From: a virus
Lineage: Duplodnaviria; Caudoviricetes
Reading direction: 5' to 3' (one strand)
Length of the DNA: 48,922 nt
Virus record (IMG/VR): IMGVR_UViG_3300032267_000653
Coordinates: 1-48,922 of that record
The notes beneath the pieces are model-generated. The model was given only the letters and a program-made list of their open reading frames with translations. It was not told the DNA's origin and did no database searches. This document shows, in pieces, positions 19,387 to 38,423 of this stretch. Every line of letters begins with the position of its first letter. Position 1 is the first letter of the stretch. Both the position numbers and the translations under genes were made by a program.

Positions 19387-19654
19387 TCCGTTTAACGGTG
19401 TGGTCTGAGTTCCTACTGAACGATCTGTTGTTGCTAGCGGATTTAACCTTGAGATTACTTTTAGCACTTGTGCCCCCCTTGCTGAGAGGCTTTGAGTGGT
19501 CGACGTCTTTTCCATCACCTTTTGATACCTTTCCTTCTTTCATTAGCTCCGCACGGGCAGTGTTACGTTTTGCCCTGTTTTTTAATTGTTCGGGTTTACC
19601 CTGATACTGTTCGTATTCTTTTTTGTATGGTCTAGGTTTGTTCACGTATGGCAT
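19370..19654 (-). CDS. HNH endonuclease-like protein
   Basis: DVDHSKPLSKGG...NL...NRS motif. Confidence 0.7.
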   Translation of the reverse strand: MPYVNKPRPYKKEYEQYQGKPEQLKNRAKRNTARAELMKEGKVSKGDGKDVDHSKPLSKGGTSAKSNLKVKSASNNRSFSRNSDHTVKRNVSKK

Positions 19655-21288: not shown

Positions 21289-21469
21289 TTATACCATGCT
21301 CCATTAGTTTTGCTTTTAGCCTACCAATTTCATTTTGTTGTATACGAATCTGATCTCGGAGCATTTGTTCTTTTTCGTTTTGGTCTTGTAACTGAACCAT
21401 ACCTACAAAAGGGATTGGCTCTACTGTAATCTCTGCATCAATACGATCTTGTGTTGTAAAAGTTGTCAT
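21281..21469 (-). CDS. Hypothetical coiled-coil protein
   Basis: 62 aa, ATGA-coupled, GAGG RBS. Confidence 0.6.
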   Translation of the reverse strand: MTTFTTQDRIDAEITVEPIPFVGMVQLQDQNEKEQMLRDQIRIQQNEIGRLKAKLMEHGINE

Positions 21470-22197: not shown

Positions 22198-22198
22198 C

Positions 22199-22969: not shown

Positions 22970-23443
22970 TTATTTCTTTTCCTTTTTAAGTTTATAGCCT
23001 TTGCTAGCAAGAGCTTCTTTAATTTGACCTACACCTACTTTGCTAAGTCCAGGGGTTCTCCAAGTTAAATCAGATTCGGTCTGAGTAAGCAACTCTTGAA
23101 GATTATTTACACCGATGCCTTTCAAAGCATTTATGGCACGAACAGTTAGTGTCACAGGGCAATCAGGGTCATCAAGCTTTAGATACTCTTCTTTTACAAA
23201 CCCTTTCGCATCTTTGTTAGCCGTTATACCTTTAGGGTCGATCATACGAATGCGATCATAAGCCCTTTCAAGGTTAGCTACTGTTGTATCAAAGTCAGAC
23301 TTAAGTTTTTCATAAGCCTTTTTATATCTTTCCTCAGATTCAAGTTTTGCTTTAGAAGGTGGCACTTGAACCAAGTCATTACCCGCAAACTTACTAAAGC
23401 TAACCATCTCTGCAATCGAATTAAACTCCACATGTATTTTCAT
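22970..23443 (-). CDS. Protein with an RNA polymerase alpha C-terminal-domain-like module
   Basis: LTVRAINALKGIGV...L...TESDL...TPGLSKVGVGQIKEALASKG resembles E. coli alpha-CTD LTVRSANCLK...[20 protein letters not shown]. Start MKIHVEF is TAATG-coupled to the polymerase. Confidence 0.75.
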   Translation of the reverse strand: MKIHVEFNSIAEMVSFSKFAGNDLVQVPPSKAKLESEERYKKAYEKLKSDFDTTVANLERAYDRIRMIDPKGITANKDAKGFVKEEYLKLDDPDCPVTLTVRAINALKGIGVNNLQELLTQTESDLTWRTPGLSKVGVGQIKEALASKGYKLKKEKK

Positions 23444-25266
23444 TAACATTCTCCATAAGATTTTCCAACTCCCGACTCGCAACTCAGAGGTAGGTCTACT
23501 GCCCACTTAGGTCGCATCCTCATACACATCTCAACATACTCTTGACCAGTTTGTGCTTCTTGCTCAGGTATAACGCAAGCAATCGCATCATGCACAGTCA
23601 TTACAACTTTGTACTTCTTTGCTACTTGTAACATCTGCTCACCAATAATGATTCGAGCTAAGGCTTGACAAACATTCTCAATAACCTTACCGCCATATAT
23701 CCTGTTAGGGATAACGGCTTTGCCCTTCTTGGTGTCGTATACATACTCGTCTTTGCCCTGTTCGTTACGCATCTTGCGTAGGTTTGGGTATTTAACATAT
23801 AAGCCGTTAGGCAGACGAATGCCTTTGCGCCCATCTACAAACAACACACCCTTGCGCCCTATCGGAGCAGTTTGGTCGTTAATGATGGCATCTAAAGCTA
23901 GCCCCGCTTGTTTCCACAACTGCGGTATCCAGTCATAAGTCTCACGATATACTTGGATAATACGGGTGGCTTCCCCCTCTTCAATCTCCACATTAAAAGT
24001 TTTGAGCTGAGTTTGGAATTTCTTACTGCCCATGCCATAGCCACATCCCAATATCGTCGTCTTACCGACGAACCTTTCATCCTTGCTAATTTCTTCTTGA
24101 TTCTTGCCATAAATAGACGATGCCATGATTTTGTATACATCTTCGCCCCTTTCAAATGCGTCAACCAAATCGTTCTGTTCGGCCAGCCACGCTAATGTTC
24201 TTGCTTCTATTTGGCTAGAGTCAGAGTCCACAAGCACCGATCCAGGCGGCGCCATTATTGCTTTCTTTAACATCGACCCCCTTGGTAGGTTCTGCAAGTT
24301 AACCTTGTCATCACCGCCCCAACGACCCGTATGAGCCGCATAGTAGCGTAGGGGTATGGGGAATAAGCCTCGCTGCGCTATCTCAATAAACCGCTCAGTC
24401 CTTGTTTCTTCAATGGTTGACTTCACTCCTAAGCGCGCTGATGCTAACGCTTGCACCACTTCGTTCTCGTGCTCAAGTAGTTCTTTGAACCCTTCGTCAG
24501 TCTTAGCAAATGCCCATGCTTCTTTACCTGTCGTAGCACTAATCTTGCGTGGGGGTTCTATACCCTGCGCTATGAGCAACTCAGCAAACTTGTCATTGCT
24601 CATCAACAATTCTTTTTCTTTCTCAATGCTAGCGAGCAGACTTTCTTTTCTCTGCCGTACCACACCCAAGTGGTCATGCAATATAGTGCCGTCAAGCCAT
24701 AAGCTAGGCTCAGTAAACATACGGATGGTCAGGTCTATCAGCCGTAGCTCAATAGGGGGAAAGCCTGCACTTAGAATTTTAAACAAATCCATCGTAAGAA
24801 CCACGTCGTTCTTACAGTATTCACCATACTTGGCTAGGTCTTGGGCATTGAAGTCTATGCGATGCTTACCAAGCGCATTTAACACCTCTGTGCCCTTGAC
24901 CCCTAAGTTATAGTGTTCAGCCAACTTAGCAAGGCTACCGCCAACTTCCGTGCCATGTATTGCTCTTGCCATGGATAGCGTATCTACAATGGCTTTAGGT
25001 CTTATATCAAATATAAAACTAAGGATAGCCATATCAAAAACAGCGTTATGCGCAATGACCAAATTTTTATCGAGTTCATATTTATCTAATGCTTTCTTTA
25101 ACTGTGCTTTAGTACCGCTATACCAACGGGGTTCCCCACCATCCTCTTGAATAGCAAAGCCAATCGTCTCAAACTCAGAGCCACGGATGTATTCCTCCGT
25201 AGTCATTTTGCTAAGCGAGTAGGTTTGGGAATAATACGTTTCGAAGTCTATGCAAAATATTTTCAA
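23443..25266 (-). CDS. polA: Family A DNA polymerase with 3'-5' exonuclease
   Basis: DFET and HNAVFD exonuclease motifs; HTGRW, NLQNLP; motif A DSSQIEAR, motif B RFVGKTTILGCGYG, motif C VHDA. Confidence 0.92.
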   Translation of the reverse strand: MKIFCIDFETYYSQTYSLSKMTTEEYIRGSEFETIGFAIQEDGGEPRWYSGTKAQLKKALDKYELDKNLVIAHNAVFDMAILSFIFDIRPKAIVDTLSMARAIHGTEVGGSLAKLAEHYNLGVKGTEVLNALGKHRIDFNAQDLAKYGEYCKNDVVLTMDLFKILSAGFPPIELRLIDLTIRMFTEPSLWLDGTILHDHLGVVRQRKESLLASIEKEKELLMSNDKFAELLIAQGIEPPRKISATTGKEAWAFAKTDEGFKELLEHENEVVQALASARLGVKSTIEETRTERFIEIAQRGLFPIPLRYYAAHTGRWGGDDKVNLQNLPRGSMLKKAIMAPPGSVLVDSDSSQIEARTLAWLAEQNDLVDAFERGEDVYKIMASSIYGKNQEEISKDERFVGKTTILGCGYGMGSKKFQTQLKTFNVEIEEGEATRIIQVYRETYDWIPQLWKQAGLALDAIINDQTAPIGRKGVLFVDGRKGIRLPNGLYVKYPNLRKMRNEQGKDEYVYDTKKGKAVIPNRIYGGKVIENVCQALARIIIGEQMLQVAKKYKVVMTVHDAIACVIPEQEAQTGQEYVEMCMRMRPKWAVDLPLSCESGVGKSYGEC

Positions 25267-25661
25267 AACGAACCTTTGGGGCTTCCGCCTGCAACTCGCC
25301 GAGAAAGAGATGATAGTTCCTCAACAGAAAGAGTAAGGGAATGGGGTAGGGTAGTAGTAGGTACATCTGAAAGACGGAACTCACGGGATTCGCCTAGCAG
25401 GGTATTCATAACTTGCTTAGTAAAAAGATCTCCTTGCAAACCCCGCAGCTTTTCGTATAGCGCTTTGATTTCTTTGTCGGTTAGGAACGGCAACTGATCT
25501 CTGTAGTCCTTGCCCCCATTGGTTCGCATTTCAACGGAGAGAAGAATGTCTCGCCACTTAGGGGGATACCCATCCCGAAGGCTAGGAACAAACTCATCAG
25601 GGTTACTGCTCATGCGTTCAAGTAATATCTGAACACCTTTATTTAATTCAACATCTGCCAT
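25263..25661 (-). CDS. Hypothetical protein
   Basis: Start MADVEL with GAGGAGG RBS. Confidence 0.6.
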   Translation of the reverse strand: MADVELNKGVQILLERMSSNPDEFVPSLRDGYPPKWRDILLSVEMRTNGGKDYRDQLPFLTDKEIKALYEKLRGLQGDLFTKQVMNTLLGESREFRLSDVPTTTLPHSLTLSVEELSSLSRRVAGGSPKGSF

Positions 25662-25968
25662 CAATATCCTCCTCGTCAAGTAAGCTCCTTAAGGTTGCAC
25701 CTAACAATGTTAGGCTTTCCTCATTTACTACATAGGCAATTCCACCCGCATCACGGATGTCTGCCATTTCTTTTTCTTGTAGCGCAGTAGGCTTATTGTT
25801 TCCCGCCTTGCATTCTATGGCAAGGAACTTCCCATTAGCACAGCATATGATATCAGGCACACCGCTTCTGCCATAGCCATGTGTCGCAGGGAAAAAATAA
25901 TAAATGCCGTAAGCCTTGATTAGCTTAACGACTTTATCTTTAACTTTCTTTTCGGGAGTAGATGCCAT
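25648..25968 (-). CDS. VRR-NUC-type nuclease/resolvase
   Basis: PEKKV, GVPDII, AIECK, PTALQ and GGIAYVV motifs. Confidence 0.85.
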   Translation of the reverse strand: MASTPEKKVKDKVVKLIKAYGIYYFFPATHGYGRSGVPDIICCANGKFLAIECKAGNNKPTALQEKEMADIRDAGGIAYVVNEESLTLLGATLRSLLDEEDIDGRC

Positions 25969-25974
25969 GCCACC

Positions 25975-26002
25975 ATACTAACATGGTGTTGGACTTTGTC
26001 AA
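25975..26002 (-). promoter_or_regulatory. Sigma70-type promoter, probably leaderless
   Basis: TTGACA (25997-26002), 16-nt spacer, TGT-TAGTAT (25975-25980). The ATG lies 6 nt after the -10 box. Confidence 0.55.
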
Positions 26003-26033
26003 GGGGGGAATTAAAATATATTTGGGAGGGGTT

Positions 26034-26167
26034 GGGGGGATATGTAGATTATCTGCCCCCCTCAGATTTTGGATTCAGCTAGCGTAAGAAGTCATTGGGG
26101 CAACTAGCTGAGGATAAAATCGTTTGCATCTACAAGGCTAATAGGTTCTATCGTAATCAAATGCCCC
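26034..26167 (-). ncRNA. Candidate structured RNA element
   Basis: Five complementary segment pairs within 134 intergenic nt, with two pseudoknot crossings. Confidence 0.4.
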
Positions 26168-26175
26168 TAACATTG

Positions 26176-26700
26176 TTAGGTCTTGCTTAGATTTGCAACC
26201 GCACGATTGAGATACCATTGCGCCTTCTTAAGGTTTTCCAACTTCTCATCCTTGTGGTCAGCACGACTAATGTATTTCACTACATTACCTAAATGATAAT
26301 CCAACTGCTTAGCTTCGATAAAGTCGATAGTCTCAATACCACCCACCTTATAGTGGCTCGGGCTATTCACCTTGTCCTCTGCAAACAAAACCATTGATGC
26401 TACTGCGTTAGGTGCAAGTGTTGAAGGTATCTGGCGACGAGGGCGACGACCACGCTTAGCGAAAGTAGCTTTACCCCGAGGCGATGCGCTCTTGTTGTAT
26501 CTATCTACAACATCCTTAACCATTTGCTTGGCAGTAACAAACTTGTTGCCTTTAGTCGCTGCCGATTTCATATTACTCCTACGCTGATATACGCTAGCCA
26601 TGCTAACACCAAACTTCTTGGCAACTACGCTAGTCTTTACATCAGGGTTGTTTGCCATGTATGCGTTAATCTTTTTGCTTTTGGTTGATACTTTTCTCAT
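26176..26700 (-). CDS. HTH plus DUF3310-like protein
   Basis: N-terminal TSVVAKKFGVSMASVYQ; C-terminal DKVNSPSHYKVGGIETIDFI...GNVVKYISRA...LKKAQWYL. Confidence 0.75.
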   Translation of the reverse strand: MRKVSTKSKKINAYMANNPDVKTSVVAKKFGVSMASVYQRRSNMKSAATKGNKFVTAKQMVKDVVDRYNKSASPRGKATFAKRGRRPRRQIPSTLAPNAVASMVLFAEDKVNSPSHYKVGGIETIDFIEAKQLDYHLGNVVKYISRADHKDEKLENLKKAQWYLNRAVANLSKT

Positions 26701-26875
26701 TTACTTCTCCTTGTTGTTGAATATAACTAGCTAGCACTTCCCTAATCTTTGCGTTCTTGTTAGGGTAAGCATTAAAAAACTGCATTACTTCTGTTGGTAA
26801 TCTGAGGGGGAAGTAAACCATTGCAGGCTTTACCCCCTTACCTCTACCTTTCTTTGGGCTTACTTCATTCATCAT
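26666..26875 (-). CDS. Small ribbon-helix-helix (BrnA-like) protein
   Basis: GRGKG..PAMVYFPLRLPTEVMQFF...KIREVLASYI fits a beta-alpha-alpha pattern. Confidence 0.5.
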   Translation of the reverse strand: MMNEVSPKKGRGKGVKPAMVYFPLRLPTEVMQFFNAYPNKNAKIREVLASYIQQQGEVNEKSINQKQKD

Positions 26876-27083
26876 TTTCTCTTTGGTTAGCTTCTCTGTT
26901 AATCTTAAATAAATAATCATCACGATACTCAGTAGGTGGAACAAACCCATACCGCTTAAAGGTTTTCATTACATCAGAACCGCCTGTGTATACGAACTTA
27001 GAGTTAGTATCTATAGCCATAGCTTGTCTCCTTTCCTTAGGTTGGTCTGCAACTACATCAAATTTGCGTTTGAATATTCTCAT
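26865..27083 (-). CDS. Hypothetical protein
   Basis: 72 aa, AAGGAG RBS. Confidence 0.6.
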   Translation of the reverse strand: MRIFKRKFDVVADQPKERRQAMAIDTNSKFVYTGGSDVMKTFKRYGFVPPTEYRDDYLFKINREANQRENDE

Positions 27084-27092
27084 ATCTACTCC

Positions 27093-27929
27093 TTAGCTAA
27101 CATTGTTAGGCATCACCAAGAAAGTCGTTTCGCTTGCACGAACACCGACACCATCTATTACTTGGTTATCTTCAACTAATTTAAGTAGCCCTACTGCCCT
27201 TCGCATAAAGTCAGGCAACTCTTCACTTGCTTTTATTTCTAAAGGGTCTTTGCCCTTTTGTATAGAATAGTTTACTCCATCTATGAACACAATGTAAGCG
27301 TCTCCTAAACGCAACGCTTCTTGCATTGCATCAACTGAACTAAACTCAGCTATGGCAGATGGCAACTTCTCTAGGTTATCACTTGGTTTTTTATCCCCTG
27401 CTACTGTGCTAGCAAACATAGCATAGTTATCATAGATAAACTTTTGTGTATGCTCTTGCAACGCATCCCACTTGTGAGACAAGTCCCACCTCTTCTGATT
27501 GTGAACTTGCCCTAGCACATTAGTGATATCTCGATGAGCCTCAGTAAACTTTTCGCTTACATTCTTTTTACCAAAGAACTTACCCACATGCTTGAGTGCT
27601 TTATCTTCGTGGATTGTTTTCATACCACGACCACGCTCTCGCACACCATTGATACGATGGTTATCTACACAATACCGCCACCCACCATTGCTCGTATACT
27701 CTTTGTCAATTGTGCCTAGCACTTCTCTCTTATCCACAACATTAAAACGATACGCTTCGTGAATCTTTTTGGTTCTGTCGGTAGACATATGCACTTCTTC
27801 AAATGTCCATTGTGGATACTTGAGTGCTAGCTTCTCTATAAAGCTTTTGAGAAAGGGGTCGATAACTGATTCCTTTTCACCCTCTCCAAACATGTCATGC
27901 TTCTTTAATTTGATGTTCTCGTATGTCAT
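27093..27929 (-). CDS. Hypothetical protein
   Basis: 278 aa, GGGGAG RBS. Confidence 0.75.
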   Translation of the reverse strand: MTYENIKLKKHDMFGEGEKESVIDPFLKSFIEKLALKYPQWTFEEVHMSTDRTKKIHEAYRFNVVDKREVLGTIDKEYTSNGGWRYCVDNHRINGVRERGRGMKTIHEDKALKHVGKFFGKKNVSEKFTEAHRDITNVLGQVHNQKRWDLSHKWDALQEHTQKFIYDNYAMFASTVAGDKKPSDNLEKLPSAIAEFSSVDAMQEALRLGDAYIVFIDGVNYSIQKGKDPLEIKASEELPDFMRRAVGLLKLVEDNQVIDGVGVRASETTFLVMPNNVS

Positions 27930-28041
27930 CTGATTACTTCTCCCCTAAATAAATATTAACTAAAACATATAAGGCAAAAGCCCATGTAAGCGCCCCTGTT
28001 AAAGCAAGTATTGTTACTATTACAGTAAACATAAACCCCCC

Positions 28042-28899
28042 TTACCAATCAAACTTCTTAAGAATGTCATCAACCTTAGACTTCACAGACTGCCGAACTT
28101 CTGCATGTTCTTTAATGTCCTCGATATCAACACCTAACATTGTTAGCTCGAGGGAACGGCGAGCGCTCTCAAGCAATGGGTCTTTCGTTATGTTTAAGTG
28201 TGTAAGTAAACCGCATAGCTCCTGCGCATTTGTAATCAGGGTATCGTGATACCGCTTCTTAGTATCGTCATCACCCTCTATGTCGGTTAGCTTTTCTGAG
28301 ATATGCACAAGGTTCTTATGCAACTTCTCCCATGGTTCACGCATGGCATCTTTGAGCCTGTCATTAAACGCTGACTCATACTGCTCACCCAATTCATCCA
28401 TGTCCGCTTTTGGAATATCTAAACGGAAGTCACCACCCTCAGGCAACGGAGAGAATACCAATCGGAATCCGAACTTGCTACGCAACTCCTCGATACTTGG
28501 ATAGTCGTAAGGGTTGAACAACGCACCCATATGATGTTTCGCTAAGTCGATCAGGTCTGCATAGTTTGCATAGAAGTCCTCAATCATGGTAGTCATGTTG
28601 CTCTGATACACATTCATGTTTGACTTGTAGTCCATGAACAAGCTTGTGGGTAGTAGCCTAGCACCTTTGTCTGACCACGACAGCGTAGTCTGATTATGGT
28701 AGAGCCTAGCCCTAGCAGCGTAGTCAGCTATCTTCTTACGCTTGTCCGTTCCTGCCATTAGATTCTTCCGCACTTGGGCTGAACCGCTACTTGCACTATT
28801 ACTCGCAAGCACGATATCGGTTGCACCCTTGTCCAACTTGTTAGCAGTCCAAACACTAATGTTTAGCTCTACTAATACTGCGCTACTAGATATACTCAT
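28042..28899 (-). CDS. Helical protein, DUF3150-like, in the AAA/vWA module
   Basis: 285 aa. LVELNISVW, KNL, GARLLP, YDYPS and LN pattern, adjacent to the AAA and vWA genes. Confidence 0.5.
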   Translation of the reverse strand: MSISSSAVLVELNISVWTANKLDKGATDIVLASNSASSGSAQVRKNLMAGTDKRKKIADYAARARLYHNQTTLSWSDKGARLLPTSLFMDYKSNMNVYQSNMTTMIEDFYANYADLIDLAKHHMGALFNPYDYPSIEELRSKFGFRLVFSPLPEGGDFRLDIPKADMDELGEQYESAFNDRLKDAMREPWEKLHKNLVHISEKLTDIEGDDDTKKRYHDTLITNAQELCGLLTHLNITKDPLLESARRSLELTMLGVDIEDIKEHAEVRQSVKSKVDDILKKFDW

Positions 28900-28901
28900 G
28901 A

Positions 28902-29144
28902 TTAACTTCCCTCAGGTTTGCCAGCTAACTTCGCTAGGTTATAAAAAGAACCGCTTAACACACGCATGTCACACAAAAACTTATCTTGGGCAAAGACATG
29001 AAAGGTGCTACCCCCTTCCTCCGCATTCCGATACTTCTCTACATACATCTCTGCATCTTTGAGAAGGTCTAACATTGTTAGGGCTTTGTCAGCATCCATA
29101 ACAAACTCCTTATTCCATCCCATGTTTACAATTACTTTGCTCAT
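28902..29144 (-). CDS. Hypothetical protein
   Basis: Start MSKVIV after an AAGGA RBS; 80 aa. Confidence 0.6.
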   Translation of the reverse strand: MSKVIVNMGWNKEFVMDADKALTMLDLLKDAEMYVEKYRNAEEGGSTFHVFAQDKFLCDMRVLSGSFYNLAKLAGKPEGS

Positions 29145-29148
29145 ATGA

Positions 29149-30390
29149 TTAGTCCTTAACATGTATCGTCTTACCCACAGAGGCAACAGATTTATTACCT
29201 CCCACAATAGTCCATAAAATCGGTGCATCCCAATCATCTCCCCACTCCCCCACATAGCCATCGGTTAGCATGATGATTGCCTCGGGCTTAATCACCTTCT
29301 CTTTCAAGTAACGCATTACGCAAGTAGGGTCAGTGCCACCACCCCCCTTGGGTTGAGTCGAGCTAACAATGTTATCCACTTGGGAAGAGTCATACTCCTC
29401 ATGCCCTGCAACTGCACCATCCCAATAGATAAGATCGACCTTATCAGGATGAACATCTTTAGCAATCCCTTGCACCTCGGATAAGAACTCCGCTAACTCC
29501 TTACCACCTACTGAGCCACTCGTATCAATGCCAATCACAAGATGACCTACACGCTCACCTATTAGAGTAGGCATATAAATATCTTGACCTAGGTATCTAC
29601 GATTAACTCTGCGCCATGAACTTGTGTCTTTCGCATTACATGTAGAGCGAACAAACTCCTTGAGCAACTCTCTCCAATCCACTTTGGGTTCAAGCAACTC
29701 TTGCAACTCTCGAGACATTCCACCGCCACCGCTACCTACAAGTTTCTGCTGAGCAATTACACCTTGTCTAATAGCCTGATCTATATCACGCTCTAGCTCT
29801 TTCTTACCTTCTTCGCTCAACGCTTTCGCACCTTCCCAATCGTGGTCATCAAAGCCACCGCCTTGCCCATCTTTACCACCGCTACCACCTCCGCCACCAC
29901 CTCCGCCACCGCCTTCTTCCTCTTCCTCTTTCAGAATGTCGAATACTTGTTTAGCGTTCATACCTCGGAATCGTTCATCGACTGCACCTATCGCCTTACC
30001 ATTACGCTGAGGCATGGCAATAAGTAATTCATCCTTGTCCATATCCTTTAGCTGAAGGTTAATTACATAGTCACACGCTAGGTTTGCAAGATGAGGGTTC
30101 TCATCATTTAGCTTGCGCCATGTAAACAGATGACGATAAGCCTTGTGCAATGTTTCGTGTAAGACTACGAATGCCAACTCTTTATCATCTAAAGATTTAA
30201 TAAACTCACGACCATAGCGTTCATCTCTACCATTAGTGCATGCCGTTGGAACATTGTCATCTACACTTGTCTTGCCGACAGTCATCAAGCCTGACCATAA
30301 TGCGAACTTCGGATTACGCATGATTGAAATCTTAACTTTGCTCAATCTGCGTTCTTCTTTGTCTTTGACTACTTGAGTATCACCTAACAT
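29149..30390 (-). CDS. Metallopeptidase-vWA protein (DUF2201-like)
   Basis: TACTNG, HETLH, NLACDYVIN, Gly-rich linker, MIDAS-like IDTSGS, GGGT and LTDG. Confidence 0.85.
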   Translation of the reverse strand: MLGDTQVVKDKEERRLSKVKISIMRNPKFALWSGLMTVGKTSVDDNVPTACTNGRDERYGREFIKSLDDKELAFVVLHETLHKAYRHLFTWRKLNDENPHLANLACDYVINLQLKDMDKDELLIAMPQRNGKAIGAVDERFRGMNAKQVFDILKEEEEEGGGGGGGGGGSGGKDGQGGGFDDHDWEGAKALSEEGKKELERDIDQAIRQGVIAQQKLVGSGGGGMSRELQELLEPKVDWRELLKEFVRSTCNAKDTSSWRRVNRRYLGQDIYMPTLIGERVGHLVIGIDTSGSVGGKELAEFLSEVQGIAKDVHPDKVDLIYWDGAVAGHEEYDSSQVDNIVSSTQPKGGGGTDPTCVMRYLKEKVIKPEAIIMLTDGYVGEWGDDWDAPILWTIVGGNKSVASVGKTIHVKD

Positions 30391-30392
30391 TG

Positions 30393-30557
30393 TTAGCCCT
30401 TTCTTTTTGTTGTATCAAAAAAATCTTCTGCTTTATAACCTTTGGCATACATCAACTTGCGCAACTTACCTAGCGCCCGCTCTTGTATCTGCCTTACTCT
30501 TTCTCTACTAATCTTAGACTCCTCAGTAAGGCGTGGTCGCCCTCGTTGTTTGTCCAT
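30393..30557 (-). CDS. Mini protein with the sigma70 region 4.2 helix
   Basis: MDKQRGRPRLTEESKISRERVRQIQERALGKLRK; TAATG-coupled to the AAA gene. Confidence 0.65.
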   Translation of the reverse strand: MDKQRGRPRLTEESKISRERVRQIQERALGKLRKLMYAKGYKAEDFFDTTKRKG

Positions 30558-31624
30558 TACAGTAAGTCCTCGTTCTTCTGCACCCAATCAGCGAACTTGC
30601 TACTAGAGAATGCGATAGCCTGTTTACTTGGTGACTTAGCAATGTTGATAGCAAAGCATGCTTGCCACTCGGGTTGGAATCGTTCAATGTATTCCATGAA
30701 CTTAGGCATACTCTGCTTATCCATCTTGCTGATAGCACCGAATACAATGATTGCGCATGCGCCTGCACTCTCGGGAACTAAGGCAGTCTTAGGATTAGCA
30801 ATCACCGACTCCCATGTAGGAAGCTGGTCTGAGAACTCTATGTATGCTTGCATATCACGACTCGCTGATTCACCTACCGCACCACTCATTGCACATATCA
30901 AGCTATCGGCATCTAATTGTGAACGCACCCTAACAATGTTAGATACTCTCTCCAATGAACGAGGCGATACGAATGCCATCTGCATCTTCTTTGGATTGAA
31001 GATATACGGATTGTCTGCTTGCCCATCATCTAAGTAGCTAGCCATTGCATGAGGGAATTGTCTTACCCACGCAATAATCTCAGGCGCAATATCATTCTCG
31101 ATTGCCCAAGCCATCCACTCCTCAGCATCAGGCTTTCTTACATGTAGCGGAATAATACGATTCATACTATGGGCTTTCAGGGAATCGCCTACACCATCAC
31201 TAGATAGATTGCCTGTCAGAAAAGTAATAGACTCGGGGTGCAATGAGATATCACCTAGTCGTGGGTTTGCCACCTCCAACATGGGGTGCAACATATTCTT
31301 AATAGGGTCAGCGCCCTTCGTATACTCATCTAACATTGTTATGACGGGTTTACCCAGATGCAATTTAAATCTACTGTTAGGGTAGTAGGCAGTAGTCTTT
31401 GTCTCCCGATCAATGACGGGCATAGCAATATCGCCCAAGTCCATGTTAGGCACATCTATATAGGACACCTCATGGTCGGGGAGCTTTGCTGATAGCGACT
31501 TAAGTAGAGACGATTTGCCAATCCCTGGCTCGCCACGCAAAAAGTAGCGATTCATCGGGGTAGAAAGAATGATGTTTGATGCTTGTGCTAGTGTCACTGT
31601 TTTACCAAAGTTTATTTCAGCCAT
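30557..31624 (-). CDS. MoxR-like AAA+ ATPase
   Basis: Walker A GEPGIGKS, Walker B MLDE, TGN, NR and SPRS motifs. Confidence 0.85.
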   Translation of the reverse strand: MAEINFGKTVTLAQASNIILSTPMNRYFLRGEPGIGKSSLLKSLSAKLPDHEVSYIDVPNMDLGDIAMPVIDRETKTTAYYPNSRFKLHLGKPVITMLDEYTKGADPIKNMLHPMLEVANPRLGDISLHPESITFLTGNLSSDGVGDSLKAHSMNRIIPLHVRKPDAEEWMAWAIENDIAPEIIAWVRQFPHAMASYLDDGQADNPYIFNPKKMQMAFVSPRSLERVSNIVRVRSQLDADSLICAMSGAVGESASRDMQAYIEFSDQLPTWESVIANPKTALVPESAGACAIIVFGAISKMDKQSMPKFMEYIERFQPEWQACFAINIAKSPSKQAIAFSSSKFADWVQKNEDLL

Positions 31625-31723
31625 GCTTTGTTTCTCCTGTTGTTGTGATTACATCTACTGCGTTAGCCCTAACATTGTTAGGGGGGTTGAAAACTTTAAC
31701 ATTTATTATTTAATATATACTAT

Positions 31724-31752
31724 ATTATAACACATTTTATTAGACAGATCAA
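31724..31752 (-). promoter_or_regulatory. Early sigma70-type promoter
   Basis: TTGATC, 17-nt spacer, TATAAT with extended TG and an AT-rich upstream tract. Confidence 0.75.
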
Positions 31753-31797
31753 GTATTCTTCCGAAAAATAAAAATAATTCGGAATGACCTAACATTG

Positions 31798-32727
31798 TTA
31801 TGCCTCATGTAATCTGCGCCATCCGTCTCTAAAGTATTTGCCATTGCTATCTCTGCGAGCCACACCTATGGGCACTTGCTTAGGCACAAGCACATCATCT
31901 CGGTGGAATCCCACAATCAAATCGTCAAGGGCTACCTTGATCTTCTTCTCCATCACCACATAGCCTTCGGGTTCATGGTATTTATGGTTGCCATATGACT
32001 TAGCTAGTAGCAGTAAAGCCTTATAGAAATTCTCATGCTGACTTTCACCCTCTGACTTCATCAGGGTAAATAGATTCTTGATTGAATCAGTCCACTTATC
32101 GTAAGCACGATTGCCTAACTCAACACCCATATCCATTGCATTGGGGAACTTAGAATGGGGGAACACTCGAGCCATCTCCGATGCTAGGTAAGGGTCATTG
32201 CCTTTAAGTCTGCTCATCCGACTAACATAATCAAGGAAGGGCTTGTATTGCGCCCTAACATTGTTAGCCTTCTTGCGGTCAATCGCATGCACATACTTAG
32301 GCGGTAGCTTGTCAGTCTTAACCTCAAGGTTGCCTTGCCCATTCATGCGTAGCCATATACCCTCATCGCCCAACGCAAACTCACCTTGCTTGGTGCGCAC
32401 ATACAGATCGTTGTTATAGATACGACTGCTCACACCCCATAGAACTTCGTCTATGAAATTGCAAGTCGATACACTATTCCACATATCATTCATGATGCGG
32501 ATATCACCGTCTGCAAAGAAGCTTACTACTGCTGTCTTATACAGAACACAAGCCACACCCCCCTCGGGTAGCAACTCGATCTTGTATTGGTCAGCCTGTC
32601 GTCTGTTGCCAAGGGGTCTTACATCTACACCCCTACCACGAATGGGCTTGGTCGACTCCCACTTGTGGAATGCCTCGTTGTAATTTGCAAGGGGATGAAT
32701 CCCCGAATTTCTATGGTGTCCGTACAT
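31798..32727 (-). CDS. Hypothetical protein
   Basis: 309 aa, GAGG RBS. Confidence 0.75.
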   Translation of the reverse strand: MYGHHRNSGIHPLANYNEAFHKWESTKPIRGRGVDVRPLGNRRQADQYKIELLPEGGVACVLYKTAVVSFFADGDIRIMNDMWNSVSTCNFIDEVLWGVSSRIYNNDLYVRTKQGEFALGDEGIWLRMNGQGNLEVKTDKLPPKYVHAIDRKKANNVRAQYKPFLDYVSRMSRLKGNDPYLASEMARVFPHSKFPNAMDMGVELGNRAYDKWTDSIKNLFTLMKSEGESQHENFYKALLLLAKSYGNHKYHEPEGYVVMEKKIKVALDDLIVGFHRDDVLVPKQVPIGVARRDSNGKYFRDGWRRLHEA

Positions 32728-32759
32728 GATTACTTATCCTCGTTTAGTTGCGCTGCGCA

Positions 32760-32897
32760 TTACTCTTCTATACCTACTCTCTTAGTCCTAACAATGTTAG
32801 GCTTGTGCTTCCCACTACTGCGTTTCGGTTGCATGATTAGCGCCCGCACAATCGGGTTGCGTTGTAGCGGTATCTTCTTTCTTGGTCTCTTTTTCAT
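32760..32897 (-). CDS. Small basic hypothetical protein (not in the ORF track)
   Basis: MKKRPRKKIPLQRNPIVRALIMQPKRSSGKHKPNIVRTKRVGIEE (45 aa). Confidence 0.45.
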   Translation of the reverse strand: MKKRPRKKIPLQRNPIVRALIMQPKRSSGKHKPNIVRTKRVGIEE

Positions 32898-33339
32898 CTG
32901 TATCTCTCTTTCCTAAGTAATCATCAGCATCAAACTGCAATGCACTAAAGGCATGGAAGTAGTCATAGCATGGGTCATCCCCAAACTCCATCTCCTCTAT
33001 GTCATCGTTCTCCTCGCCCACTCGCACAAAGTAGCCTGATATACCCTCGATATCTTGCATCTGCTCCCACATCTCGTTCCATGCTTTCACATCTTCGTAG
33101 TCGGGATACCACTTCCAATCGTTGCCATACAAAATAAACTTGCCATTCTGCCACCCAAAGCTATCGGCATCTGAGGTGTTGTTTATCTGCCATAACTCAT
33201 AGAACCTAGACAACTTGATGAACCCAATCATCTCTTTGAACTTAGCCCTGTCGTAGTCAAAGTAATGACTGCCTTTCTCATCTTCTTTACGCACTACATC
33301 TACGCTGATACACCCAGCTAGCTGAGATCTATACCCCAT
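32815..33339 (-). CDS. Acidic hypothetical protein
   Basis: 174 aa; MGYRS start, WKWY and RVGEENDDIEE; GAGGAG RBS. Confidence 0.7.
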   Translation of the reverse strand: MGYRSQLAGCISVDVVRKEDEKGSHYFDYDRAKFKEMIGFIKLSRFYELWQINNTSDADSFGWQNGKFILYGNDWKWYPDYEDVKAWNEMWEQMQDIEGISGYFVRVGEENDDIEEMEFGDDPCYDYFHAFSALQFDADDYLGKRDTDEKETKKEDTATTQPDCAGANHATETQ

Positions 33340-33499
33340 CTTTCATCTCCTCTAACATTGTTAGGGCTTTCTTACGCATGGCTTCCATGCCCTGATTGAA
33401 TCCTTCGCAAAACAATAGGCGGTCATCATCCGTAAAGATGTTGCCTTCCATCTCGTCAAAGGTATAGAACGCATCCATTGCATCTAAAGTATCTTCCAT
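33329..33499 (-). CDS. Small acidic protein (not in the ORF track)
   Basis: MEDTLDAMDAFYTFDEMEGNIFTDDDRLLFCEGFNQGMEAMRKKALTMLEEMKDGV, AGGAG RBS. Confidence 0.65.
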   Translation of the reverse strand: MEDTLDAMDAFYTFDEMEGNIFTDDDRLLFCEGFNQGMEAMRKKALTMLEEMKDGV

Positions 33500-33500
33500 C

Positions 33501-33680
33501 TCATTCTCCTGTTAAAAATTTAATTGCGCTTAAAAGTTTTGGTGCTAGATAGTCGTCATAATCTGATTCATCTGCCAACCTATCACTAAGTTCTACAAGA
33601 AAATGAATTAAATCATCGTCTTCTTCGATAAATGTTCCTTCGTGATACTCAGGGTTCTGTGTAAATAGTCCGTCTTTCAT
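33501..33680 (-). CDS. Small, highly acidic protein (not in the ORF track)
   Basis: MKDGLFTQNPEYHEGTFIEEDDDLIHFLVELSDRLADESDYDDYLAPKLLSAIKFLTGE, GAGGAGG RBS. Confidence 0.65.
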   Translation of the reverse strand: MKDGLFTQNPEYHEGTFIEEDDDLIHFLVELSDRLADESDYDDYLAPKLLSAIKFLTGE

Positions 33681-33838
33681 GTCACTTCCTCCTCGTTTGT
33701 TAATACACCTTCAATAAACCCCCTAACGAAAGGCTCAAGCCCATCATCAACAGGGTCGTTGTCCATCTCGTTGATATACAAATTCCTAGCGTAAGCATCT
33801 AATCGCTTGATGCGTTCTACATTTTCTTTGGTTCTCAT
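33677..33838 (-). CDS. Small hypothetical protein (not in the ORF track)
   Basis: MRTKENVERIKRLDAYARNLYINEMDNDPVDDGLEPFVRGFIEGVLTNEEEVT, AAGGAG RBS, ATGA overlap. Confidence 0.65.
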   Translation of the reverse strand: MRTKENVERIKRLDAYARNLYINEMDNDPVDDGLEPFVRGFIEGVLTNEEEVT

Positions 33839-33839
33839 A

Positions 33840-34022
33840 CTATTCTCCTTGTAGTGCGGTTAGTTTTGCCTTTGCTATTGCTAGCGTAGTCCTTGCCTCT
33901 ACTGCTCTTAATGCTTGCGTCTCGTTTTCGTAGGCATCGTGGTTATCTTCCAATGCTTTGCTCAACTCATCTATCTGCTTAAGCAACTCACTAATGCGTT
34001 GCCCTTTGTAATACTCTTTCAT
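33840..34022 (-). CDS. Small coiled-coil protein
   Basis: Start MKEYYK with GGGAG RBS; 60 aa. Confidence 0.6.
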   Translation of the reverse strand: MKEYYKGQRISELLKQIDELSKALEDNHDAYENETQALRAVEARTTLAIAKAKLTALQGE

Positions 34023-34195
34023 ACAAACTCCCTTATCCAATCAATCCTAACAATGTTAGGGTCTATCCATTTAGCCATGCGCTTTTGATACGGCTTATCT
34101 ATCGGGTATTCAACTAGCAATCCCCACTTACCACTACGCACATAGGCATAGAACTCTGGCTTATCTGGCTTTTGATAAACCTTAATCACTACCAT
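34019..34195 (-). CDS. Small hypothetical protein (not in the ORF track)
   Basis: MVVIKVYQKPDKPEFYAYVRSGKWGLLVEYPIDKPYQKRMAKWIDPNIVRIDWIREFV, ATGA overlap with the next gene. Confidence 0.55.
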   Translation of the reverse strand: MVVIKVYQKPDKPEFYAYVRSGKWGLLVEYPIDKPYQKRMAKWIDPNIVRIDWIREFV

Positions 34196-34200
34196 TTAAA

Positions 34201-34467
34201 TCACCCATTAAATCCCCCCATCCTGTAAGCCACTCCATCGAGAAACCCTTGCACATACCCATCACAGGCAGATGCTCGTCTGTCCAACTTGACTACCTTA
34301 TCGCTCTCTGCATACTCATAAGCCTTGGTCAATGCGTAGTCAAAGATTGTCCCTCGGTCTTTCGGTTGCATATCATCTAACAATGTTAGGACTTTTTTGC
34401 GTTGCTCTGCCCCCAAACTAAACACCAAGTCGCATAGCTCGTAGTAGTCCCTGTCTTTTACTTTCAT
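34201..34467 (-). CDS. Hypothetical protein
   Basis: 88 aa, GGGGGAG RBS. Confidence 0.65.
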   Translation of the reverse strand: MKVKDRDYYELCDLVFSLGAEQRKKVLTLLDDMQPKDRGTIFDYALTKAYEYAESDKVVKLDRRASACDGYVQGFLDGVAYRMGGFNG

Positions 34468-34718
34468 CTGCTCCCCCTTCGGTTATCTAAATACCCTTCA
34501 ATCCACATAAACTTTTCGTGGTCGTTGGGGTTGTTCGGATACTTATACTTAATACTGTCGGGGTTGTTATCCCTAAGCCACCGCAAATAAGCATCTTCTG
34601 CTCTGTTGCGTAGGTATTGCTCATGCTCTAAATGTTCATACATAACCCGACACGCATTCCAATATGGATATTCCCTTTCTCGTTGCTTTAGTTTGCGTAG
34701 CATCTGCTCTTCTGTCAT
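34464..34718 (-). CDS. Hypothetical protein
   Basis: Start MTEEQML with GAGGA RBS and ATGA overlaps. Confidence 0.65.
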   Translation of the reverse strand: MTEEQMLRKLKQREREYPYWNACRVMYEHLEHEQYLRNRAEDAYLRWLRDNNPDSIKYKYPNNPNDHEKFMWIEGYLDNRRGSR

Positions 34719-34918
34719 GTTGTCCTCTTCGGGTTGGTAAAACACAATTCTTGTGGGTTGTGGATATATTGATACGCACCCTTGGAATATGGGATTTGCA
34801 CAATATGCTTTACACGCTTTGCGACTTTATCGCCACATCCTAGGCATGTCGTATACCCTAAGTCAAGTCTGCCAATCGGTATCTCCTCGCCACATTCACA
34901 ATCTATGCCATATAACAT
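34715..34918 (-). CDS. Small zinc-finger protein (DksA/TraR C4-like spacing)
   Basis: MLYGIDCECGEEIPIGRLDLGYTTCLGCGD...; the ATG lies inside a palindrome copy. Confidence 0.6.
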   Translation of the reverse strand: MLYGIDCECGEEIPIGRLDLGYTTCLGCGDKVAKRVKHIVQIPYSKGAYQYIHNPQELCFTNPKRTT

Positions 34919-34928
34919 TGTTAGCCCC

Positions 34929-35198
34929 TTATCTTGGTTGAGTGCGTTCTCTGAGTGATGCAATATCCCTGCCCGATACCATACATAGGGATAACAACAT
35001 AGGTGTTTTCTCCTGTAAGGCACAGCCAATACCCCAAAGGAACGCATGCTGATTCTCTTTATACTTCTTGGTCTTAGGGTTGAGGCGGTTGCTATTTGCA
35101 TACTCTTCCCACTTGGCTACCAATTCTTGAGTAGGGCTAACATTGTTAGGCGCAGCCTGCTTAACATCATCACCAAAGTCAATATCTAACTGAGCCAT
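34929..35198 (-). CDS. Hypothetical protein
   Basis: 89 aa, AAGGAG RBS. Confidence 0.65.
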   Translation of the reverse strand: MAQLDIDFGDDVKQAAPNNVSPTQELVAKWEEYANSNRLNPKTKKYKENQHAFLWGIGCALQEKTPMLLSLCMVSGRDIASLRERTQPR

Positions 35199-35293
35199 TA
35201 TTGAACTCCTTTCTGAACTAGGAACATAACAAAGTGGAACATGAAATACATTGGTGCAACGACCAATGCCATAAACGCAATAAACTTATTCAT
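35198..35293 (-). CDS. Small membrane peptide (not in the ORF track)
   Basis: MNKFIAFMALVVAPMYFMFHFVMFLVQKGVQ; GGAG RBS, TAATG overlap. Confidence 0.55.
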   Translation of the reverse strand: MNKFIAFMALVVAPMYFMFHFVMFLVQKGVQ

Positions 35294-35380
35294 CTGACTA
35301 TCTCCAAAGTAGACCTAACAATGTTAGGGGTTGAACAAAATATAAAATGAGGCTTTTTTAAATTCTCACATATATCTTAT

Positions 35381-35409
35381 ATTATAACACATTTAATTGG
35401 ACAGATCAA
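35381..35409 (-). promoter_or_regulatory. Early sigma70-type promoter
   Basis: TTGATC, 17-nt spacer, TATAAT with extended TG. Nearly identical to the promoter at 31724. Confidence 0.75.
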
Positions 35410-35612
35410 GTTTTTTGGGCAGAATTCGACCCTCGTTCCGAATTATTTTTGGGCACAATTCAATCCCTAGCCTCTCCCTTTGGGGAATTCCCTTTGGGCT
35501 ACCACCCCTCTAGGAACTGTCATTTCCCGAAATGACAATCGGGAAAAAGCTTTGGGCAAAAATGGCAAATGGGGCAAATGGGGCAAAGACCTAACATTGT
35601 TAGGGCATGGAC

Positions 35613-35641
35613 AAAAAAATACCCTGCACTAGGCAGGGTAT
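35613..35641 (-). terminator. Intrinsic terminator
   Basis: ATACCCTGC-ACTAG-GCAGGGTAT with an A7 tract on +. Confidence 0.8.
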
Positions 35642-35660
35642 GTAAGTGGGAGGGCAGGGG

Positions 35661-36188
35661 TTAGTCTGCAATCATCCCGATATCAACTCCCATTTCAGCC
35701 AAAGCCTCAGCAATCTTCTGCTGAACTTTAGTCAATTTTGGGGACAGAGATTCCTGTCTGCGGTTGAACTTATAGAGGGTTGTCAATTCCTCAAGATTAC
35801 GCAACTCAGGGGAACGATTGTGCTTTGCATCATCCGAACCTTCTGCAACTTCACCATCTGCACCTTCTGCAGTAGGTGTATCAGGTTTGCCATAACGAGC
35901 CTCAAGACCATAATCACGCACATCCTTCCAAACCTTAGAGGGGTTTGAATGTTTGCCCGCTTTCAAGCCCACAAAGAATAATTCCTTTTCCTTGCGAACT
36001 GCTTTGCCCTCATCCGAAGAATCGGTGTGGCTTACTGCGAACCAATCGAATGAATCGAACTTCAGATTAAGGGCTTTTGCGTATTCCACATTAGCACCAT
36101 AAACAGAGGTTTGAGCCTCGATTGCACCTTGACGCTTTTCAGCAACGATTGCATCAACATCCACACCATACACATTTAATTGAACCAT
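35661..36188 (-). CDS. Unknown early protein, paralog A
   Basis: 175 aa with its own promoter and terminator. Clearly homologous to 37413-37925. Confidence 0.85.
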   Translation of the reverse strand: MVQLNVYGVDVDAIVAEKRQGAIEAQTSVYGANVEYAKALNLKFDSFDWFAVSHTDSSDEGKAVRKEKELFFVGLKAGKHSNPSKVWKDVRDYGLEARYGKPDTPTAEGADGEVAEGSDDAKHNRSPELRNLEELTTLYKFNRRQESLSPKLTKVQQKIAEALAEMGVDIGMIAD

Positions 36189-36263
36189 TTTGATTACTCC
36201 CTAACAATGTTAGGTTGAATAGAGAACCTAACTAACTCTTTACTGCTTTCATACTATAAGTAT

Positions 36264-36292
36264 AGTATAACACATTATAATGACTAAATCAA
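36264..36292 (-). promoter_or_regulatory. Early sigma70-type promoter
   Basis: TTGATT, 17-nt spacer, TATACT with extended TG. Confidence 0.7.
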
Positions 36293-36324
36293 GTATTCTT
36301 CCGAAATATTTAAATTTTTCGGAA

Positions 36325-36690
36325 CGGGGGTAATATTAGAAAAAATAGGTAATATTAGAAAAGTGGAGGTTTTTCTAATGTATTTTCTAATAATGTAAAA
36401 CCCAATAAGTATAAGGCTTAGAGAGGAGAAAATTAGGTATTATTAGATTATTAGACTTTTTAAAAATTTATATACCCCCAGAGGGATTCTTGCTATTGTA
36501 AGATTTCGCACTGCGCTAAAGGCTCTCTTTAGAACTTCATACACAATTTCTTGCACTTTTCTAATAATACCCCAAAAACGCTTGTAAGTCTTTGATTATA
36601 AAGGCTTTTGTATTATAAGAATTGGACTTTGCTTTTCTAATAATACACGCAAGTCCTTGATTTTAAAAGATGCAATATTAGAAAACCTTT
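36325..36690. other. AT-rich iteron-like region with two IHF-consensus sites (candidate origin)
   Basis: Non-coding. About 7 copies of TTTTCTAAT(A) in both orientations; YAANNNNTTGATW at 36585-36597 and 36650-36662. Confidence 0.5.
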
Positions 36691-36865
36691 TTTGGCCAAG
36701 CCCTAACATTGTTAGGGGCACAATGGGCTTCCACTCCTCTGAGAACTGTCATTCCCAACATGACAAAATCTTGACTTCGGGGCTTTGGACTCCCACCCTC
36801 CTGAGAACTATCATTTCCAGAAAATGATGGAAACAAAAAAGCCCTAACAATGTTAGGGCATGGGC

Positions 36866-36890
36866 AAAAAAAATCCCCTTTCGGGGATTT
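36866..36890 (-). terminator. Intrinsic terminator
   Basis: Minus strand AAATCCCC-GAAA-GGGGATTT followed by a U-tract. Confidence 0.8.
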
Positions 36891-36897
36891 GGTGCGG

Positions 36898-37035
36898 TTA
36901 GTATTTTCGCCAAGTGACTGCAACATAGTCGGTATAGCTTGTGCCGTATCTAACAAAATTCATTTGGTACGGGCTTACATGTATTGGCATAAGTGAAAGC
37001 AATTTGTATAAGCGGGATTTGTATTTGATTACCAT
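36898..37035 (-). CDS. Small hypothetical protein
   Basis: Start MVIKYK with GGAG RBS; 45 aa. Confidence 0.55.
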   Translation of the reverse strand: MVIKYKSRLYKLLSLMPIHVSPYQMNFVRYGTSYTDYVAVTWRKY

Positions 37036-37054
37036 TATAGATACTCCAGTAGGG

Positions 37055-37345
37055 TTAAGAGATTTGTTTACGATATTCATAAGGTGAATCAGCACCATGA
37101 CTATTCTGAGATAGGTAAGCAGATATACATTCCTGCGCCATAGTGTAGTCTGAGAAAATTGTAGGTTTGCCGTTTTCCTGCCCTAAATAAGTAAAGCGCA
37201 CCAAATATTTTCCGTCTTGCAGAGTATCAATAGATGCAGAGAATTTAGGGAATAGCTCCATTTGTCTCCATCCATCACCCATTATCGAATCTAAATGCTT
37301 ATAAAAGGTGGTTTCTACTTTTTTGGTTTTATAAAATACTGGCAT
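37055..37345 (-). CDS. Hypothetical protein
   Basis: 96 aa. Its leader CTTAACCCTA.TGGAGTA is shared with the downstream ORF. Confidence 0.65.
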   Translation of the reverse strand: MPVFYKTKKVETTFYKHLDSIMGDGWRQMELFPKFSASIDTLQDGKYLVRFTYLGQENGKPTIFSDYTMAQECISAYLSQNSHGADSPYEYRKQIS

Positions 37346-37412
37346 GTTATTACTCCATTAGGGTTAAGGGTTTCGGAGGATACCCTAACAATGTTAGGGT
37401 ATCCATTCCTAC

Positions 37413-37925
37413 TTAGTCGCCAATCATTCCAATATCAATACCCATTGACTCTAGGGCTTTGATAATGTTGCGTTGACAATCTTTGAGGTTATCGCTCAAT
37501 GACTCTTGGCGACGGTTGAATTTAAACAACACGGTCAACTCCTCAATGTTGCGTAGCTCGGGGCTACGGTTATGCTTAGCGTCACCTGAGGATTGGCTCT
37601 CAGTTGTTTCACCCTCAGTAGTTGGCACTACTGGCTTACCATAACGGTCAACCCTTGCGTAGTCACGGATTTGTTTCCAAGCCGTGCTAGGGTTAGAATG
37701 CCAATCTTTGATACCCTTGCGGAAACGGTCGCCCTCACCTTTTACCGCTTTGCCCTCATCTGAGGTATCGGTGTGCTTTAGTTCGAACCAGTCAAATGTT
37801 GACCACTTTTTGTTTAACAACTTAGCGTACCTAACATTTGCACCGTAGCTGGTTTCGTACTGGGCGATTACTGTATTGCGAGCCTCTTCGATTAATTGCT
37901 CTAGGTTTTCAATGATTTCTTGCAT
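37413..37925 (-). CDS. Unknown early protein, paralog B (first gene of the early arm)
   Basis: Start MQEIIE with AGGAG RBS; 170 aa; homologous to 35661-36188. Confidence 0.85.
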   Translation of the reverse strand: MQEIIENLEQLIEEARNTVIAQYETSYGANVRYAKLLNKKWSTFDWFELKHTDTSDEGKAVKGEGDRFRKGIKDWHSNPSTAWKQIRDYARVDRYGKPVVPTTEGETTESQSSGDAKHNRSPELRNIEELTVLFKFNRRQESLSDNLKDCQRNIIKALESMGIDIGMIGD

Positions 37926-37982
37926 GTTGATTACTCCTATGTAGTTTATAAAGTGCTCAGGATTTTTCGTTCCCTTAGGTTT

Positions 37983-38012
37983 ATTATACACCATTTTGTA
38001 TCACAAAATCAA
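37983..38012 (-). promoter_or_regulatory. Early sigma70-type promoter
   Basis: TTGATT, 18-nt spacer, TATAAT; same family as the other three early promoters. Confidence 0.6.
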
Positions 38013-38423
38013 GTACCCTAGAAACAATAAATACCCCATCCCCTAACAATGTTAGGGTATAAAAAAGCAAGCATACCCATGACCCCATTTTTAAAAAAGA
38101 AGTATCAGTCCACCTATACTCACTAATTTGCACATTAGATACACAATTTTAAAAAATCCCCCTTACAAAACTCTCTATAACTTGTCTACGGTACGTTAAG
38201 GTATATCTGGTTAGCAGCGTATACATAACATTAAGGGAACTTCTTGCTGCCAATTAGACCCCCCTCCCCCTACTTAAATATCCACAAGTCTCCCCACAAT
38301 TTCCCACATAGAACCCACCCCCTATCTTTTTTATTTCAATACCCCCAGGGGGGTATATATTTTTTTTGGTATATACTACTTCTGAGCGCTTTTGCTCATA
38401 CACACAACACACAGGAGTTTTAT

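Follow-up and report, generated by a model that had tools for sequence, protein, structure and literature searches.

IMG/VR virus record IMGVR_UViG_3300032267_000653 (48,922 nucleotides; the whole stretch is called the window below) comes from an uncultured aquatic, podovirus-like phage; the window has 66 open reading frames (ORFs). One DNA palindrome, TAACA-W-TGTTA, is repeated 25 times in its early arm, spanning positions 25701-38055. The array is real, strongly selected and family-wide, and it is a variant of multi-site phage operator arrays for which a candidate binder can be named. Its sites are selected at the DNA level with a strict spacer length throughout the family. Our preferred reading, to which a probability of roughly 45% is given from sequence evidence, is that the first early protein of the phage binds the early-arm sites in a two-fold symmetric form and acts as a roadblock to the host polymerase, which would lower early transcription.

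The palindrome array in the window

A preliminary description of the window had counted 21 perfect copies and four with one mismatch. The recount agrees: CTAACAWTGTTAG is found in 21 exact copies and four with one mismatch, and shuffled sequence gives none (100 shuffles). The sites are located as follows.

25701..38055, no strand: array of 25 (C)TAACA-W-TGTTA(G) sites (motif scans)
Starts of the 13-mers: 25701, 26167, 27097, 28134, 29069, 29363, 30384, 30930, 31330, 31669, 31789, 32255, 32788
Starts of the 13-mers, continued: 33352, 34047, 34377, 34912, 35137, 35315, 35591, 36201, 36703, 36844, 37385, 38043

The scan of the whole window bears out that copies are absent outside the early block. 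All 25 occurrences of the 9-bp core AACA-N-TGTT lie inside 25701-38055, and allowing two mismatches adds a single match, at 48181, which is at chance level (chance mean 1.95). The spacing, central bases and arm lengths first described (0.12-1.04 kb; 11 A and 14 T; up to 27 bp) were all reproduced. Neighbouring sites are 120-1037 bp apart, the central base is A in 11 copies, T in 14 and never C or G (A/T of 14/11 on the coding strand), and the longest arm measures 13 bp, which makes a 27-bp palindrome centred at 37391. The sites are spaced more evenly than random (coefficient of variation 0.51, P=0.0002, with the bounds set by the outer sites), and gaps above about 1 kb are absent (P=0.001). 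Significant evenness was found in only two of seven relatives tested, and no helical phasing was seen by eye. About 85% of the zone is coding sequence; thirteen sites lie within ORFs, three cross ORF ends and nine fall between genes.

The window of 48.9 kb is the entire record. Since complete relatives measure 62-66 kb, the late genes, about one quarter of the genome, are probably missing from it. The confinement to the early arm holds for the record, and it also holds in four terminally repeated relatives, single outliers aside.

Conservation and change of the sites in relatives

An equally restricted palindrome had been suggested as a check in related phages, and it was found. In the best 80 of 227 relatives of the ATPase encoded under the array (duplicates kept), TAACA-N(1-3)-TGTTA occurs in at least four sites at 80 of 80 loci. 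The sites of five complete or near-complete relatives are confined to a block of 10-14 kb, except for single outliers in two of them. A 1-bp spacer is in the majority at 49 loci, a 2-bp spacer at 29 and a 3-bp spacer at two, five loci being mixed, and the half-site is constant in the window's family across 62-99% ATPase identity. The spacers are W, AA/TT and AAA/TTT, and each orientation occurs (A/T, AA/TT, GA/TC and AC/GT across arrays). The earlier statement that there is no orientation bias is true of this window but not of the relatives, where the coding strand leans to A (A 259/T 169) and, among 2-bp spacers, to AA (AA 184/TT 52). Two CTAACA-N4-TGTTAG copies (1136 and 9334) in one phage-like contig may be a further spacer variant.

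The spacer label changes at least six times on the ATPase tree (76 loci). In four sister pairs, intergenic sites occupy orthologous positions, and their A/T runs differ in length by a single base gained in place. In the same pairs, coding 1-bp sites have decayed in the 2-bp lineage, mostly at synonymous positions. Peptides able to spell the site use palindromic codons in 165 of 181 cases in 1-bp genomes versus 5 of 36 in 2-bp genomes. The in-place base gain, the decay of coding sites and the codon choice therefore indicate that the spacer length is read, which would fit a two-fold symmetric protein on duplex DNA. That some protein binds the sites is very likely. The preliminary description had proposed a dimeric phage or host protein coating this arm. 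A two-fold symmetric reader of double-stranded sites is well supported by the orientations, the spacer switching and the codons, and the host part of the proposal is not.

A sister clade, represented by the relative G023 (seven GGTAC-N2-GTACC), shows the same layout with more than 15 other palindromes, and 60 of its 80 loci carry at least four copies of a top palindrome. Both arms of orthologous sites have been rewritten between close relatives there, and phages 75-95% alike carry many motifs. So many unrelated palindromes among close relatives therefore point to a phage-encoded binder, which is regarded as very likely. One sister-clade motif, TCCCTAT-N-ATAGGGA, was found in three loci and resembles tetO. 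Other arrays consist of 25 GTTCA-N3-TGAAC in Pag-Yong1, genome-wide, 11 CCTAA-N2-TTAGG in Alcaligenes phage QDWS535, mostly in the early arm, and 26 TTACC-N6-GGTAA in Rhizobium phage RHph_TM3_14A. No array was found in HTVC023P (de novo scan of 50 of its 61 kb), HTVC027P, DSL-LC04, psg01 or G024, and no perfect-palindrome array in two chromosome-embedded relatives. CRP-901 carries four TGACA-N2-TGTCA at 12027-14289, overlapping promoter-like sequences in a classical operator layout.

Position of the sites relative to predicted promoters

Five promoters were predicted in or near the array.

37983..38012, minus strand: predicted sigma-70 promoter, with one site upstream, about 73 bp from the estimated start, and none just downstream
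36264..36292, minus strand: predicted extended -10 promoter, with a site at about +50
35381..35409, minus strand: predicted extended -10 promoter, with a site at about +53
31724..31752, minus strand: predicted extended -10 promoter, with sites at about +42 and about -78
25975..26002, minus strand: predicted promoter of the replication block, with the last site about 260 bp downstream

With the start point assumed 6 nt past the -10 element, the sites near 99 dereplicated extended -10 motifs in the relatives peak at +38 to +61, and none is found from -16 to +32. A site at +30 to +90 accompanies 92 of 96 predicted early promoters, where 10.9 were expected under the null. The sister clade agrees with other motifs, 14 of 15 predicted promoters having a site at +20 to +100. 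An elongation roadblock fits this arrangement because the sites avoid promoter cores, follow nearly every one of them and then recur through the operons. Several roles had been listed for the array at first, and early shut-off is the one that fits the placement downstream of promoters (92/96). Repression is narrowly favoured over activation or protection.

The first early protein as a candidate binder

The early arm begins with two related genes.

37413..37925, minus strand: first early gene copy A, 170 amino acids, candidate site-binding protein; site 37385 follows its stop codon
35661..36188, minus strand: first early gene copy B, 175 amino acids, 55% identity with copy A; a site lies directly against its ribosome-binding site

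A homolog of this first protein heads the early arm in 1-bp, 2-bp and mixed genomes. Its predicted model is all-helical: four helices form an N-terminal domain, which a disordered linker joins to a pair of helices at the C-terminus (predicted local distance difference test score, pLDDT, 79). Fold and sequence searches gave no clear or significant match, and the best 120 of 707 homologs carry no Pfam label. The first-protein family of the sister clade aligns weakly to that of the window over the last helix of the N-domain and beyond (hhalign probability 58, E 1e-4).

The covariation between protein and site was followed in the sister clade, where motif classes were assigned by hand for 66 of 80 loci and 18 distinct first proteins of the family were analysed. 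In ten close loci with three motifs, the best 9-residue window of the first protein has a contrast of 0.56 versus at most 0.20 in 11 other families (label permutation P=0.0004, relatedness ignored). Over all 18 first proteins, the best window contrast is 0.68 versus at most 0.50 in eight families. The four phages with the TTCCCAC motif fall in three places on the ATPase tree (approximately unbiased (AU) test, p=1e-12) and are scattered on the trees of VWA and of a 285-amino-acid gene too. They share one helix and loop of the first protein. The three TTCATAT phages likewise agree with each other in this segment, and of the three TTCATAC phages one deviates there. In the window's family (31 loci), a single spacer change is counted on the tree of the first protein, against three on that of the ATPase. 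The 13 two-bp loci all group in one clade on the former tree and not on the latter (AU p=0.03). The array sites are likely to dock the first early protein because relatives rewrite the site set together with one stretch of that protein. On this basis it probably is the binder, and the assignment is a good lead rather than a proof.

According to our preferred reading, the early product would occupy the sites just past each early promoter, so that host RNA polymerase would be blocked in elongation, and further blocks would follow every few hundred bases through the operons. Such negative feedback would quiet transcription of the early arm by the host polymerase. No site separates the promoter of copy A from its start, and one follows its stop codon, an arrangement that may spare the regulator and block the genes downstream. 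The fast joint rewriting of protein and sites would keep a lineage from being silenced by the protein of its relatives.

Other candidates failed or did not stand out. The predicted recognition segments of an RHH-like protein (26666-26950) and an HTH-DUF3310 protein (26176-26700) vary widely while the half-site is constant; the HTH is absent in some members, and neither clearly beats the ATPase at tracking the spacer. No match to 27093-27929 was found in the atlas search.

Comparison with known systems

The system had been called undescribed. No account of this family's array was found in the literature searched (subscription papers mostly outside, supplements excluded), but the design has a precedent in PMC4351075, which is used here, like the other cited sources, for the parts available. 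The array most resembles the 17-bp repeats found in cluster O mycobacteriophages, which number in the dozens, have invariant inverted arms around a short A/T spacer and are distributed genome-wide, mostly away from promoters (PMC4351075, in part). Both sets have invariant inverted arms and a short A/T spacer, lie in and between genes, are denser on one arm and belong to phages without integrase. In contrast, the array studied here is restricted to the early arm, follows nearly every predicted early promoter, switches spacer and sequence between lineages and has a candidate binder.

Cluster A phages (L5, TipsytheTRex) carry more than 20 stoperators of 13 bp, which are proposed to halt elongation by the host polymerase; these are asymmetric, oriented and bound by the monomeric immunity repressor of a temperate phage (PMC9283540, in part). 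The 25 sites of the window are likewise away from promoter cores (none from -16 to +32 in relatives). They differ in being palindromic, in not being oriented with transcription and in lacking promoter overlap. Because its sites are symmetric, the array is not a member of the stoperator class.

KorB-OB of plasmid RK2 shares geometry only: its palindromic operator has a single central base between arms of 6 bp and acts away from promoters, but KorB is a ParB-type CTP clamp (PMC11790492, in part), and no ParB Pfam hit was obtained in the 66 window ORFs. The first-step-transfer DNA of phage T5 is alike in being a first-expressed block of about 10 kb with distinct sequence constraints, whereas its repeats cluster in non-coding regions (10.1101/866236, in part).

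Evaluation of the proposed roadblock and of its alternatives

Several observations weigh against a roadblock made by the first protein. Regarding placement, the promoters and start points are predicted, the 96 promoters are not independent, being related by descent, and a site at +40-55 is found at just three of the five predicted promoters of the window. In L5, symmetric steric blocking is insufficient and reversed stoperators fail (PMC9283540, in part). The A/AA bias on the coding strand is left unexplained by a purely symmetric site. Regarding the protein, the window's copies have no Pfam family in common, weak DUF3102 likeness being the only family lead, and both are acidic (isoelectric points 5.2 and 5.7). 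The signal in the window's own family is shared by other genes, two of ten other proteins tying at one spacer change on their subsets. The TTCCCAC group is rejected as one clade on the tree of the whole first protein (p=0.009), so the signal is local to a segment. Two very divergent first-protein subtypes go with the same 1-bp site, the large TGTTTAAACA group begins with an unrelated protein, and no first-protein homolog was detected in the array-bearing Pag-Yong1, QDWS535 and RHph_TM3_14A.

The array coincides with a second feature.

25450..38190, no strand: zone poor in restriction-type words (word counts)

Within 25701-38055 lie 0/111 ACGT, 4/161 GCNGC, 5/121 GTAC and 1/45 CCWGG, where 25% was expected, and ordinary word density returns about 140 bp beyond the outermost site. 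The first-step-transfer region of phage T5 avoids restriction sites, and the early block of the window is purged of restriction-type words in the same way. The depleted block is likely to be the first-entering DNA. Five relatives show similar depletion, strongest in two, and it is weak or absent in the array phages QDWS535, Pag-Yong1 and RHph_TM3_14A. Because it is weak in these three cultured phages, the depletion is regarded as a companion feature and not as the explanation of the array. The entire 48.9 kb contains no CCGG and very few CGCG and GGCC words, an avoidance that is genome-wide and distinct from that of the early zone.

The same kind of phage protein might coat the first-entering DNA without repressing it, by pacing or pulling entry, by shielding it from nucleases or silencers, or by loading a factor that helps the polymerase. 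This is unlikely, although array and word-poor zone share both borders in the window, sites become sparser with distance from the presumed entry end without any gap above about 1 kb, the block measures about 10-14 kb in relatives, and a downstream site fits a loading site equally well. The three cultured phages have arrays with weak or no depletion, the spacing is significantly even in few relatives, and entry or shielding predicts no fixed offset behind promoters.

It is less likely still that the first protein serves exclusion or a carrier state, silencing the early arm of later phages with the same motif in the manner of immunity groups, with self shut-off being secondary. The fast diversification of motifs among close relatives does resemble immunity-group evolution (PMC9283540, in part). 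However, neither an integrase nor a classical or cluster A-type immunity repressor was hit among the 66 window ORFs, from which late genes are probably missing, or the 32 late ORFs of the complete relative G003. The two chromosome-embedded relatives lack a perfect-palindrome array, and the half-site of the window's family stays constant over its whole range of ATPase identity.

A host or plasmid protein, either a MatP-like chromosome organiser or a MazE-type repressor titrated by the array, is an improbable binder. The preliminary description had pointed to a matS-like geometry and likened the array to matS/MatP, SlmA and Noc. This likeness is not supported: a search of 201 genomes from one order gave no chromosomal array, and the palindromes of close relatives are many and unrelated. 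Each of these genomes (the true host may lie outside this order) has at most two copies of the window motif, fewer than of a control pattern, and B. anthina has none. The spacer changes and the numerous sister-clade motifs do not agree with a conserved host protein that reads a single, unchanging motif. Phages 75-95% alike carry many motifs, and the motif covaries with a phage protein. Isolated AT-spacer copies do occur between genes in some bacterial genomes. Three of them have a single CTAACA-AA-TGTTAG at about position 2001, between convergent genes of similar size. There are 14 singleton sites in bacteria, and the proteins that flank four of them have no family in common. MtvA on plasmid pPAD8 binds the identical 11-mer TAACATTGTTA, as shown by electrophoretic mobility shift assay, and is a MazE-like antitoxin that autoregulates its operon (PMC11826091, in part). 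No such family was hit in the window, and the identity is likely to be convergence. That this 11-mer can be an operator also speaks for protein binding in our preferred reading.

An RNA hairpin of the boxB kind near the 5' end of early transcripts would suit the position at +40-60 and the coding-strand lean to A/AA, but it is very improbable because both orientations are tolerated, sites overlap stop codons or lie mid-gene, and three of four sites tried fold weakly or not (0 to -5.4 kcal/mol; one extended site, -9.4). Equally remote is the nicking or cutting of the sites by a small HNH protein (19370-19654): it is the sole family of 85 restricted to the two array-bearing records among eight GenBank relatives and is also present in RHph_TM3_14A, but a scan of ten further carriers gave one array and one cluster of four copies, the other eight having none, near-identical copies accompany different spacers, chromosome-embedded relatives carry it without arrays, and its predicted model gives weak HNH matches only. 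This conserved protein of 94 amino acids (minus strand; 4,626 homologs) is likewise encoded by Zobellviridae and by marine phages of the T7-like kind, where its gene often neighbours those for packaging or lysis.

Genome context

The plus strand encodes terminase, portal, capsid and a 2,409-amino-acid ejection-type protein, and the minus strand holds the early and replication arm, running from 38 kb down to 13.5 kb. Small early genes, an ATPase-VWA pair and the genes onward to DNA polymerase lie under the array. The closest terminase and capsid are those of HTVC023P-type phages, DSL-LC04 and Pag-Yong1. No relative at the nucleotide level was found in the GenBank phage set and no ATPase relative in the genome contigs searched; one 6.5-kb fragment of the phage family sits in a betaproteobacterial bin.

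The ejection-type protein (5994-13223, plus strand) contains an ADP-ribosyltransferase (ART-PolyVal) domain and an LPD39-like part, and its C-terminus matches a PHROG labelled DarB-like antirestriction. Genes for an FkbM methyltransferase, a glycosyltransferase-like and an RNA-polymerase-alpha-CTD-like protein (21466-23506, minus strand) are present in just two of 80 loci. Between the two first-gene copies, AT-rich non-coding DNA at 36300-36700 carries repeated TATTATTAGAAAA and TTTTCTAATA words and is a possible origin or upstream element. Records OL906435.1, OQ594354.1 and PP438419.1 have an equal length of 65,014 bp and name three different cyanobacterial hosts; one is 69% GC, and the host labels may be doubtful.

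Significance

The dispersed palindrome arrays of phages without integrase, such as cluster O, have so far been without a binder or a function. The family described here offers a candidate binder, a fixed position relative to promoters and natural specificity switches, so that one small protein and a few oligonucleotides would suffice for a direct test. Cultured array phages exist for genetics (QDWS535, RHph_TM3_14A and Pag-Yong1), whose binders may be unrelated. The family also illustrates how the sites of a multi-site operator set can change in place under the constraints of coding sequence. As a tentative suggestion from the sequences, widespread aquatic and soil podovirus-like phages might possess a new self-recognition system, in which a helical first-made protein with a swappable helix-loop and a lineage-specific palindrome would tile the first-entering DNA and gate early transcription or entry. 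If so, a protein and 10-25 sites rewritten jointly would amount to a natural library in which dozens of DNA-binding specificities follow a readable code.

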